From Escherichia phage P1, in sequence record MH445380.1: DNA of 64,000 nucleotides; one strand, 5' to 3'. Below the pieces are notes generated by a model. It searched no databases and was not told where the DNA came from. It worked only from the letters and a program-made list of their open reading frames with translations. Below, piece by piece: positions 1 through 3,000 of the stretch; positions within the stretch are counted from its first letter, which is position 1; every line of letters starts with the position of its first letter. A program made the translations under genes and the position numbers.

Positions 1-3000
1 GTGTAGCGCGAGTCAAAATTACTATAGTTAGCTGGAAGTATTTGCCCGCCGCACTGGAAGTTACCACTGCTATCAAGAAATGCTTGGCCATCTGTACCAT
101 TTGATGTTCTTGAGTTGTTAATCATGTAAAAGCCGAATTGACTATTACCAAGACCACCAATAAAGAACTTTCTGTCAGCATGGTCTTGTCTTAATAATGC
201 CTGGGCGGAACTGGTTGATACCTTATTAAGACCAAAAATAACATTTTGATCTCGCATACTAATCCAAGAACCTGAGCTGCTATTAACAGAAAATCTGTTT
301 GCATATACCCATGCATTGGTTCTTATATCGCCAGTTACATTGAGTCCATTACCGATTGAAACAGCCCCGTTAGCGTTGTTAATGGTAAGCGGTCTTAAAC
401 TATTCCATGTTCCAAGATTGTCACCGGAGGCGGTCAACATGAAGTATGTGCTTGAACCATCGTTTCGGATAAAGAATCCATAGTTGCCATAGGCAATGCG
501 CAGACCATTCGCCGATTTGGAAATAATCTCGCCAGCGAATTTCGCATAGGAACCAGTCCTCAAGACTAACTCTTCCTGAGCGTCAGTTGTTCCTGTGCAT
601 AAGCGATAAACGTTATTCTCTATTGTTTCATGCCATATGCTTGCACCTGTGCTGGAGCGGAAACGTCGCAGATACATTTTTGCATCGTCAACAACTGACG
701 TGAGCATGTCATGTTTATACTCACTTTGCGGCACGCCATTGCTATTGATTCCTCCCCGAAGAACAGTGCCACCCGGCATGGTAAAAATGCCATCTTCACC
801 GAATATCCAATCACCTGAATTAGTACCATTGCCGGTTTCTTTATTGGGCGCAGCACAATTTATCCGGATACCTGGTCGTCTGTTAGGGTTATCGACACCA
901 TCTTTAAATATGTACCCATCAGTTAGTGTTGTGCCGTCATTTTTCGTATATGTAAAGCGGATATGACGGCTTGTATGGCTACTAAAAATAAGATCGCTTT
1001 TAGTGGTAAGTAAAGGAGCTGTCAGACCTCCTAATAATGTGCCTCCGGATAGTGACAGCGCGCCAATGTTCTCTGGTGTCAACGAAATATCAGTAGTGCC
1101 ATCGAAGGTTACTCCGTTGATTGTTCTGGCGGTCTGTAATTTAGTTGCTGTTGCAGCATTACCATTGAGGTTTCCAGAGCTATAGAAACCACGACCATTG
1201 CTAAAATCAATAATTATGTCGGCAGCTATACATTCAGCTTTAGGGTTGGTTGCCCCCCATTTGTATGTGGTTTGTCCAACAATATAATCCGTTGTAGGGA
1301 CAACAACAGAAAGCCCCTCCTCCACAAGAACGCATACTGGAAATGCTCCGCCTTCAATATAAAAAACTGAGCTAACTTCATCGTCTTTATTGCTCATCGC
1401 AATAGAATGAATCGCCCGTTCTGCATCCTGATATTGCCAGAACATCCCGTATGCGTACCGCCCTCTGTCACTCCAACCAGCAGGCATCACAAAACCATTG
1501 AATTCGCAGTTGTTCATGCGATGTGCAGCTTGGCGCGGCGCAGTGGAAATAATAACCCGAGAAGCAAGTTCACCATTGCTCGTTGCAGATCTCTTGATGA
1601 CTACAGGATAGAATTTACCCTCTTCAGCTCCAGAAGGAGCATTGACTCTGGTGAATTTCATCCCTTTTTTAAGGTCTACTTCGGCTTTGCTGTAAACATC
1701 AATATTTTTTCTTGTTAACGCTACATCAGTTGGTTCTAATGCTCGGCATTTGCTATCACCGGTAATCAGAAAATTACCGTCAATGTCTAATCCGGCATAT
1801 TTATTGGTGTTGGTATCAGATTGTAGATGTAACGTCAGCCATGAGCGGTTGTCACTCCTGATCTCTGAATAAATTCTAAAACGACTTCTCTGTACCCCAG
1901 CTGAATTATTCAGATAACCACTTACAATCCCTGACGCCGCTAAATCAGCGTCTGTTGAGTTAACAAGGTTGATACCCTTAAATTGGGGGATGTCCGCAAC
2001 ACCTAATCCAAGATTAGTACGCCCTCCAGAGACGCTGGATGCACCTAATCCCCCATGAGTAATTGGTAAAATACCTTTTATGCCCAGAAGAGCATTTGAT
2101 GAACCATCAAAGTCGATGGCGTTATCACTTTGGAGGTCAACTTGAAGCGACCTTTTGGTTTTCAATTTCGTTGCAGTATCGGCATTCCCTGCCAGCGCCC
2201 CGGTGATCCCGCCGTTGAAAGTCTGGCGTGAACTCCATGTGTTAGCCGTGCTCAACAGGGGGATCTTTTCACCGCTGGTACCGAGTTCTCTTAAACCAAG
2301 GTATTGGATAACAGCAAGAACGCTTGTTTTGGCCAGAATATCGCGACCGACTGACGTTAAGTCAGTCTGAGAAACAGTGTCTGTACCGGTAAAGTACGGC
2401 AATTTATTTGCGCCTGTCGCAAGACCAGCAAGCGCGGTTAAAGTTGCATCAAGTGGCTGTTTCCCTGCCAGCGCATTTGTCATTGTTGTCGCAAAGTTCG
2501 GGTCATTGCCCAGTGCTGCTGCAAGCTCATTCAGGGTATCAAGAGCTTCAGGTGATGATCCGACCAATGCAGAGATAGCAGCCCGTACGTAAGCAGTCGT
2601 AGCGATCTGCGTATTGTTTGTGCCCTGTGCAGCCGTAGGCGCAGTAGGGACACCCGTTAATGCAGGGCTTGCCAAAGGCGCTTTGAGAGCCAAGGCATTG
2701 TTGATAGTTGTGCTGTAATTCGGGTCGTTATTGATCGCAGCCGCTATTTCTTTCAGCGTATCCAGTGTGCCAGGCGCACCGTTGATAAGTGCAGTTATAG
2801 CTGCCTTAACAAAGGCTGTATTTGCGATCTGCGTGCTGTTTGTACCTTGCGCTGCCGTCGGCGCGGTTGGCGTTCCTGTCAGACTCGGGCTTTCTATTGG
2901 CGCTTTGGTATCAGCCAGATCTTTTATAGACTTAACGGCTTTAGGGGTAGCCGCCATTGTTTCGCTGTCGCTGTTAGTTGCGCTACTGAGCTGAACTAAT

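Follow-up and report, generated by a model that had tools for sequence, protein, structure and literature searches.

We analyzed a stretch of 64,000 nucleotides (nt) from Escherichia phage P1 (record MH445380.1), here called the window as a whole, which opens inside a tail-fiber gene, gene S, read on the minus strand. A preliminary description of these letters had pointed to a candidate invertase crossover site of 26 base pairs (bp) at 2286-2311 within this gene and had proposed that the window begins inside an invertible host-range segment. We regard it as very nearly certain that the site is cixR, at which the Cin/cix inversion switch of P1 has its right-hand crossover, and that the molecule is a P1-like IncY phage-plasmid. 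The presence of cixR here is a known feature and has been textbook P1 biology since the early 1980s; comparison with public plasmids also brought out a second inversion nested within the first, which is described below.

The fiber operon at the start of the window

The fiber open reading frame begins with an ATG at 3659 (MNDVTVV...) and stays open through window position 1 and beyond; 1,219 of its codons lie in the window. Pfam places Phage_fiber_2 repeats in the N-terminal part of the protein and a Gp34_trimer domain at amino acids (aa) 1033-1093, corresponding to window 381-563, near the end of the window-encoded part. The features of the operon and of the switch that fall in this region are as follows.

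2286..2311, plus strand: cixR, the 26-bp Cin crossover site, TTCTCTTAAACC / AA / GGTATTGGATAA, identical to P1 cixR
2299..3659, minus strand: Sc, the constant N-terminal part of gene S (aa 1-454), never inverted, delimited by translation and its Phage_fiber_2 repeats
537..2298, minus strand: Sv-prox, the proximal variable fiber module, inside the invertible segment and in frame with Sc by translation; it adjoins cin in inverted isomers
1..336, minus strand: tipA, the distal fiber tip module, cut by the window start and recognized by a prefix match to the fiber of CP057851.1
2158..2302, no strand: outer inverted-repeat arm, from repeat pair I2 in locus L001 (CP057851.1, introduced below) and from junction alignments
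3671..4105, minus strand: gene R, the first gene of the R-S-U fiber operon, from the list of open reading frames and the P1 annotation
4136..4154, minus strand: late promoter LPs, with a -22 box AAGTTACTT and a -10 box TACAAT, both identical to those of the annotated P1 LPs

Sc is 98.3% identical to its P1 counterpart, and the 1294-aa fiber of plasmid CP057851.1 begins with exactly the 1219 residues encoded in the window. Left of window position 1 lie the final 75 codons of tipA and the chaperone gene U. The outer repeat arm encodes the first ~47 residues, which are common to both alternative variable parts. LPs drives R and S together with whichever Sv/U set faces it; the 86-nt region around this promoter has 2 differences from P1, one of which falls in the spacer that separates the boxes. 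Rightward, the P1 gene order is kept, through R, 16, bplA, pmgA and a 1,140-aa Sit-like transglycosylase.

A crossover site within the fiber codons

The plus-strand letters of window 2286-2311 are TTCTCTTAAACCAAGGTATTGGATAA, and they show the 26-bp architecture of the dix consensus, with two imperfect, inverted 12-bp half-sites around a 2-bp core. The left half-site lies within the invertible segment and the right one within the constant part. The central dinucleotide, at 2298-2299, belongs to the codon for Leu454, and the crossover point separates 2298 from 2299. Read on the minus strand, the site is GTT ATC CAA TAC CTT GGT TTA AGA GAA, or V450-I-Q-Y-L-G-L-R-E458, in agreement with the earlier placement of the candidate in the '..IQYLGLRELG..' codons of the fiber gene.

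Both the published and the annotated P1 sites have the same letters as the window. Table 3 of PMC3241671 prints P1 cixR as TTCTCTTAAACC AA GGTATTGGATAA, letter for letter the 26-mer at 2286-2311, and the cixR region of the P1 RefSeq genome NC_005856 carries the same sequence. In that genome cixR is annotated at 36471-36490 and the crossover at 36480/36481; a gap-free alignment takes the former to window 2289-2308 and the latter to 2298/2299, which is exactly the boundary that the preliminary description had drawn. Our reference for the P1 site was the RefSeq annotation together with the Sc/Sv boundary of M81956.1, not the feature labeled 'cixR' in that record. The labeled feature (record 2005-2226) carries the coordinates of repeat element b2, an apparent slip in the public annotation, and the true cixR of M81956.1 lies at the Sc/Sv boundary.

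We scored the window with a half-site matrix built from 13 published or annotated Din-family sites, including those in the table of PMC3241671. cixR reaches 28-32 bits, also when the cix sites are excluded from the matrix, the runner-up in the window reaches 11-13 bits and the top score across 20 shuffled windows is 13.5 bits. With as many as 3 mismatches tolerated, TTCTCTTAAACCAAGGTATTGGATAA occurs once in the 64-kilobase (kb) window, and none of 100 dinucleotide shuffles contained a match (0/100). A chance resemblance to cixR is ruled out by the exact identity and the shuffle controls. The runner-up, GTCTGATACACC TC GGTATTCGATAT at 52609-52634, is probably a chance match, its score lying inside the range of shuffled sequence.

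The partner site and the invertase

Window 1-4200 is colinear with, and 99.8-100% identical to, seven complete E. coli or E. fergusonii plasmids, with 100% identity to 95-kb IncY plasmids of E. coli; the seven include the 95,217-bp IncY plasmids CP057851.1, CP099239.1 and CP099233.1. We read CP057851.1 as locus L001, in which a window position equals the L001 position minus 12,000, and there two further elements of the switch stand to the left of the window.

L001 8551-8576, ~3.43 kb left of window position 1: the inverted partner cixL, CAATCCTAAACCTTGGTTTAAGAGAA, the reverse complement of the published P1 cixL
L001 7999-8559, 3.4-4.0 kb left of the window: cin, a 561-nt recombinase gene

cixL overlaps the 3' end of cin and has the same core dinucleotide as cixR in inverted orientation (TT/AA). 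The cin product has Resolvase (PF00239) and HTH_7 (PF02796) domains and matches P1 Cin at 100% identity. Over its first 102 nt the gene is likewise 100% identical to P1; this stretch spans the recombinational enhancer annotated there (31678-31749), and by its sequence it should serve as the cis-acting, Fis-dependent enhancer of the switch. Together, cixL and cixR form the outer ends of a 165-nt inverted repeat at 95% identity, diverged outer half-sites included, within which 145 nt are perfectly identical between the window arm and the cin-proximal arm.

From crossover to crossover the segment measures 5,735 bp, of which 2,298 bp lie in the window. The cix sites enclose a second fiber C-terminal region and two oppositely oriented Caudo_TAP chaperone genes. 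The earlier expectation that an inverted partner, a Cin-type invertase and alternative fiber and assembly genes would lie beyond the window start is borne out in full in plasmids identical to the window. The P1-like loci that we fetched each have exactly two cix sites, inverted relative to each other and 4.25-6.95 kb apart (11/11). Separately, an IS91-family element occupies the place of Sc in NZ_CP122809.1 (locus L012, 913-2450) and NZ_CP122828.1 (locus L013, 920-2460), and both plasmids keep cin and the two cix sites despite it.

The outer segment in both orientations

One pooled pig-farm sample yielded the isolates RHB13-C02 (CP057851.1) and RHB13-C03 (CP057845.1), whose plasmids are 95,217 bp each. 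In CP057845.1, window 1-2309 adjoins the invertase gene rather than Sc. A block map of the two plasmids shows a clean inversion of exactly the cix-bounded segment, and in a four-way junction alignment the flanks and the outer half-sites are fixed, with the inside of the identical repeat exchanged. Because these sister isolates hold plasmids of identical length in opposite orientations, the switch is active.

The same outer inversion separates the E. fergusonii plasmids NZ_CP099360.1 and NZ_CP058059.1 (each 94,718 bp). In this pair, three single-nucleotide polymorphisms (SNPs) at the inner end of the repeat travel with the inner modules, which places the outer crossover within ~125 nt that include the cix core; the SNPs lie ~125 nt from that core, and using them to map the crossover more finely brought no gain. 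Across PLSDB, Sc is joined to this Sv-prox in 14 records, and the same 2,309 nt stand against the invertase gene in 7 further records. Both orientations across 2298/2299, anticipated in the preliminary description, are thus found in public assemblies, including the equal-length sister plasmids from one farm.

A nested inversion and four fibers

Within the invertible segment lies a second pair of inverted repeats, one arm of which falls in the window.

337..536, no strand: inner inverted-repeat arm I1, 200 nt, 98% complementary to its partner, from a repeat search of L001

The I1 arms are at L001 9855-10054 and 12337-12536, the second being window 337-536 and the first lying ~1.95 kb left of the window start, and the repeat encodes a Gp34_trimer-like linker. 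The arms bound a 2.3-kb nested inversion that takes in the two fiber tips along with the two chaperone genes. CP057856.1 (RHB13-C01, 95,217 bp), another plasmid of the farm that yielded RHB13-C02 and RHB13-C03, aligns to the window from 346 onward only and has the 2.3-kb stretch between its I1 arms inverted. The inner flip also separates the two E. fergusonii plasmids NZ_CP099360.1 and NZ_CP058059.1, as well as NZ_CP122809.1 and NZ_CP122828.1 from Belgian enterotoxigenic E. coli (ETEC). The sister pairs that differ by it number three, one each from RHB13 E. coli, RHB02 E. fergusonii and the Belgian ETEC. The inner orientations in PLSDB number 14 versus 9 records.

Combining either proximal module with either tip gives four isomers, each with an intact open reading frame.

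Sc + Sv-prox + tipA, 1,294 aa: the orientation found in the window
Sc + Sv'-prox + tipB, 1,149 aa
Sc + Sv-prox + tipB, 1,306 aa
Sc + Sv'-prox + tipA, 1,137 aa

Every one of these proximal-by-tip combinations (4/4) is present in public records. The C-segment is a two-tier combinatorial switch, in which two proximal modules and two tip-plus-chaperone modules make four fibers. The distal fiber sequence in the window had been described as one of two alternative C-termini; it is indeed an alternative C-terminus, but the number two does not hold, as the nested inversion yields the four combinations observed. Papers on P1-like phage-plasmids describe the cin-Sv'-U'-U-S region as hypervariable. None of the papers that we searched describes the four-isomer arrangement.

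Related repeats occur in other members of the family. NZ_CP047013.1 (locus L010) has 6.95 kb between its cix sites and a 458-nt inner inverted repeat at 98% identity (3191-3648 and 6565-7022), the end of which is the I1 module; it also contains additional, diverged copies of an 'NGNAATATKLQTARTINGV' repeat. Nested repeats may be common across this plasmid family. The 4,398-bp viral contig IMGVR_UViG_2565956709_000002 ends exactly in an I1 arm, a break of the type expected if both inner orientations coexist in the sequenced population.

What drives the inner flip

For the inner flip we favor host homologous recombination between the 200-nt repeats. An alternative that we consider unlikely is that Cin drives this flip as well, acting at a cryptic AT-core site in the Gp34_trimer-like linker, and equally doubtful is its corollary that the differing core dinucleotides, AA/TT versus AT, keep the two tiers from cross-reacting. 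The candidate is a single feature.

447..472, plus strand: weak cix-like 26-mer in I1, candidate inner crossover, TGTGCTTGAACC / AT / CGTTTCGGATAA

This 26-mer shares its codon register with cixR, one of its half-sites (TTATCCGAAACG) is good, and its score is the 5th to 7th highest of ~64,000 positions in the window; these observations would suit a role for Cin. Its score of 7.3-7.6 bits is nevertheless far below the 16-31 bits of all known functional Din sites, and chance alone would give about 5-7 sites as good in 64 kb. With its best candidate scoring at chance level, a second genuine cix pair in the inner repeat is unsupported.

The positions of the crossovers can be read in two ways. SNP markers in the three sister pairs confine the inner crossovers jointly to an interval of 71 nt that contains 447-472, as action by Cin at this site would predict; the three intervals fit uniform homologous exchange equally well. 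Conservation likewise looks suggestive among close relatives, in that a 48-nt block around 447-472 is invariant in 8 P1-like copies. Among 62 unique I1 homologs from IMG/VR, however, the synonymous positions of the site vary freely, so the invariance in the 8 copies reflects recent shared ancestry. This normal synonymous variation speaks against a constraint on 447-472 at the DNA level.

Recurrence and context also speak for Cin to some degree: the inner flip recurs in three independent sister pairs, it is about as common as the outer flip (14 versus 9 records), and inverted I1 pairs are found solely nested in cix pairs. Such nesting is expected wherever two alternative fibers coexist, and the conserved Gp34_trimer-like domain is by itself enough to explain the homology of the repeats. 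Host homologous recombination between the 200-nt repeats remains the explanation that we favor.

Weighing the outer switch

Four points weigh against reading the site as a working cixR. Neither cin nor cixL lies within the window, and function in this molecule is taken from identical relatives. Sequence comparison limits the outer crossover to the ~125-145-nt identical repeat, not to the dinucleotide. Relatives with a single repeat, such as NZ_CP116091.1, show that frozen derivatives occur. Finally, the evidence on orientation comes from assemblies of separate isolates, not from reads of one culture.

Among the explanations that would take up these points, the one that survives better, and is still highly improbable, is that this molecule, although its cixR is intact, has lost cin or cixL further to the left, so that the fiber is frozen as seen. 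It would accord with the position of both elements outside the window and with the single outer repeat copy in NZ_CP116091.1, NZ_CP062890.1 and CP066198.1 (PLSDB; 84-90 kb, and 5-11 kb shorter), which may be deletion derivatives with a frozen fiber orientation. It would also accord with published P1-like plasmids, some of which have a truncated cin or a damaged C-segment (PMC6906374). Against such a loss, all seven plasmids colinear with window 1-4200 at 99.8-100% identity keep both outer repeat copies (7/7), and the two of them that we fetched, CP057851.1 and NZ_CP099360.1, carry intact cin and cixL. The molecule from which the window derives presumably has cin and cixL, as these identical relatives do.

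Less probable still is that the outer flips are the work of the host's RecA, by homologous recombination between the 145-nt repeats, and that the 26-mer is non-catalytic: the crossover is resolvable only to 125-145 identical nt, and the 200-nt repeats of the nested inversion flip without a convincing Din site, but the site, its partner, Cin and the enhancer show no difference from those of the experimentally characterized P1 system, the repeat stops exactly at the outer half-sites, as it also does in P1, D6 and Mu, and the site pair is kept in all 11 loci although their segments vary in content and from 4.25 to 6.95 kb in length.

A proposed mechanism

Cin belongs with Hin, Gin and Pin to the Din serine invertases, a family for which the invertasome mechanism is established. 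By analogy, Cin dimers would bind cixR and the inverted cixL, and the occupied sites would come together with the enhancer, which lies in the 5' end of cin and is bound by Fis, to form an invertasome on supercoiled DNA. Cin would then cut both central dinucleotides, turn one pair of half-sites by 180 degrees and religate them.

Transcription of the fiber operon would come only from the fixed LPs, through R and Sc, so that the orientation of the segment would decide which variable part and which chaperone are expressed. Each inversion is predicted to join Sc in frame at Leu454 to one of two variable parts with its own chaperone gene, and the choice of variable part and chaperone would set host range. 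The second, nested inversion swaps the tip-plus-chaperone modules independently, giving four fibers.

Comparison with known systems

Inversion of the P1 C-segment by Cin at cix was reportedly described by Iida et al. in 1982 and by Hiestand-Nauer and Iida in 1983. The locus studied here is this system itself and not just a likeness of it. cixR, cixL, Cin and the 5' end of cin with its enhancer have the P1 sequence, and the position of the Sc/Sv junction in gene S, LPs and the order cin - Sv' U' - U Sv - Sc - R are the same as in P1. Only what the segment carries differs from reference P1. Its length is 5,735 bp here and 4,256 bp in P1; the outer internal inverted repeats are 145 nt here, whereas those of P1 are ~0.6 kb; the variable parts here are unrelated to those of P1 beyond window 2158 and are longer; the fibers are 1137-1306 aa, against 987 aa in P1; and the nested second inversion between 200-nt repeats also sets this locus apart.

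The G-segment of Mu, inverted by Gin at gix, shares the 12 + 2 + 12 bp architecture of Din sites and the pairing of a constant fiber N-terminus with alternative C-termini and their chaperones. It differs in its half-sites and its GA core, in its invertase, in the position of gin beyond the far end of the segment and in having a single inversion. Salmonella Hin/hix has different half-sites, and Hin switches a promoter, not coding sequence. Pin/pix of e14 also differs in its half-sites, and Pin resides in a defective prophage.

The Min multiple-inversion system of plasmid p15B, a P1 relative, is said to have six mix sites (Sandmeier, Iida and Arber). Like the locus described here, it shuffles fiber 3' ends by more than one invertible segment and makes more than two fibers. 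In Min, all of the junctions are recognizable Din sites that score 17-24 bits on our matrix, whereas the inner junctions here are 200-nt homologous repeats; the invertase here is Cin. We found no recognizable Din sites at the junctions of the inner segment, the best being 447-472 with 7.3-7.6 bits versus 17-24 bits for mix sites, which are listed in PMC3241671, and for this reason we do not file the system under Min.

Other features of the window

Elsewhere in the window, Rfam recognizes a sok antitoxin RNA of the hok/sok type I toxin-antitoxin class at 17560-17734 on the plus strand (114.9 bits). To our knowledge, hok/sok is absent from the reference P1 genome, and the stretch may be an accessory module. 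The C4 antisense RNA and its a1/b1 target elements, which make up the P1 immI immunity region, lie at 13898-13950 and 14018-14103 on the plus strand, upstream of icd/ant in a P1-like placement. Three transfer RNA genes, for Asn-GTT, Thr-TGT and a CAT anticodon, are found within 34403-34556 and 36361-36436 on the plus strand, the same set as in P1.

Implications

The cixR site marks the window as a P1-like phage-plasmid that starts inside its host-range switch. For annotation, this means that the fiber gene at the window start is one switchable isoform and not a fixed gene, and that plasmid assemblies differing only at this segment are isomers and not variants. The four fibers occur in farm, clinical and environmental isolates, and the nested inversion doubles the repertoire. 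If the inner flip is programmed, it would matter for predicting or engineering the host range of P1-derived transducing particles.

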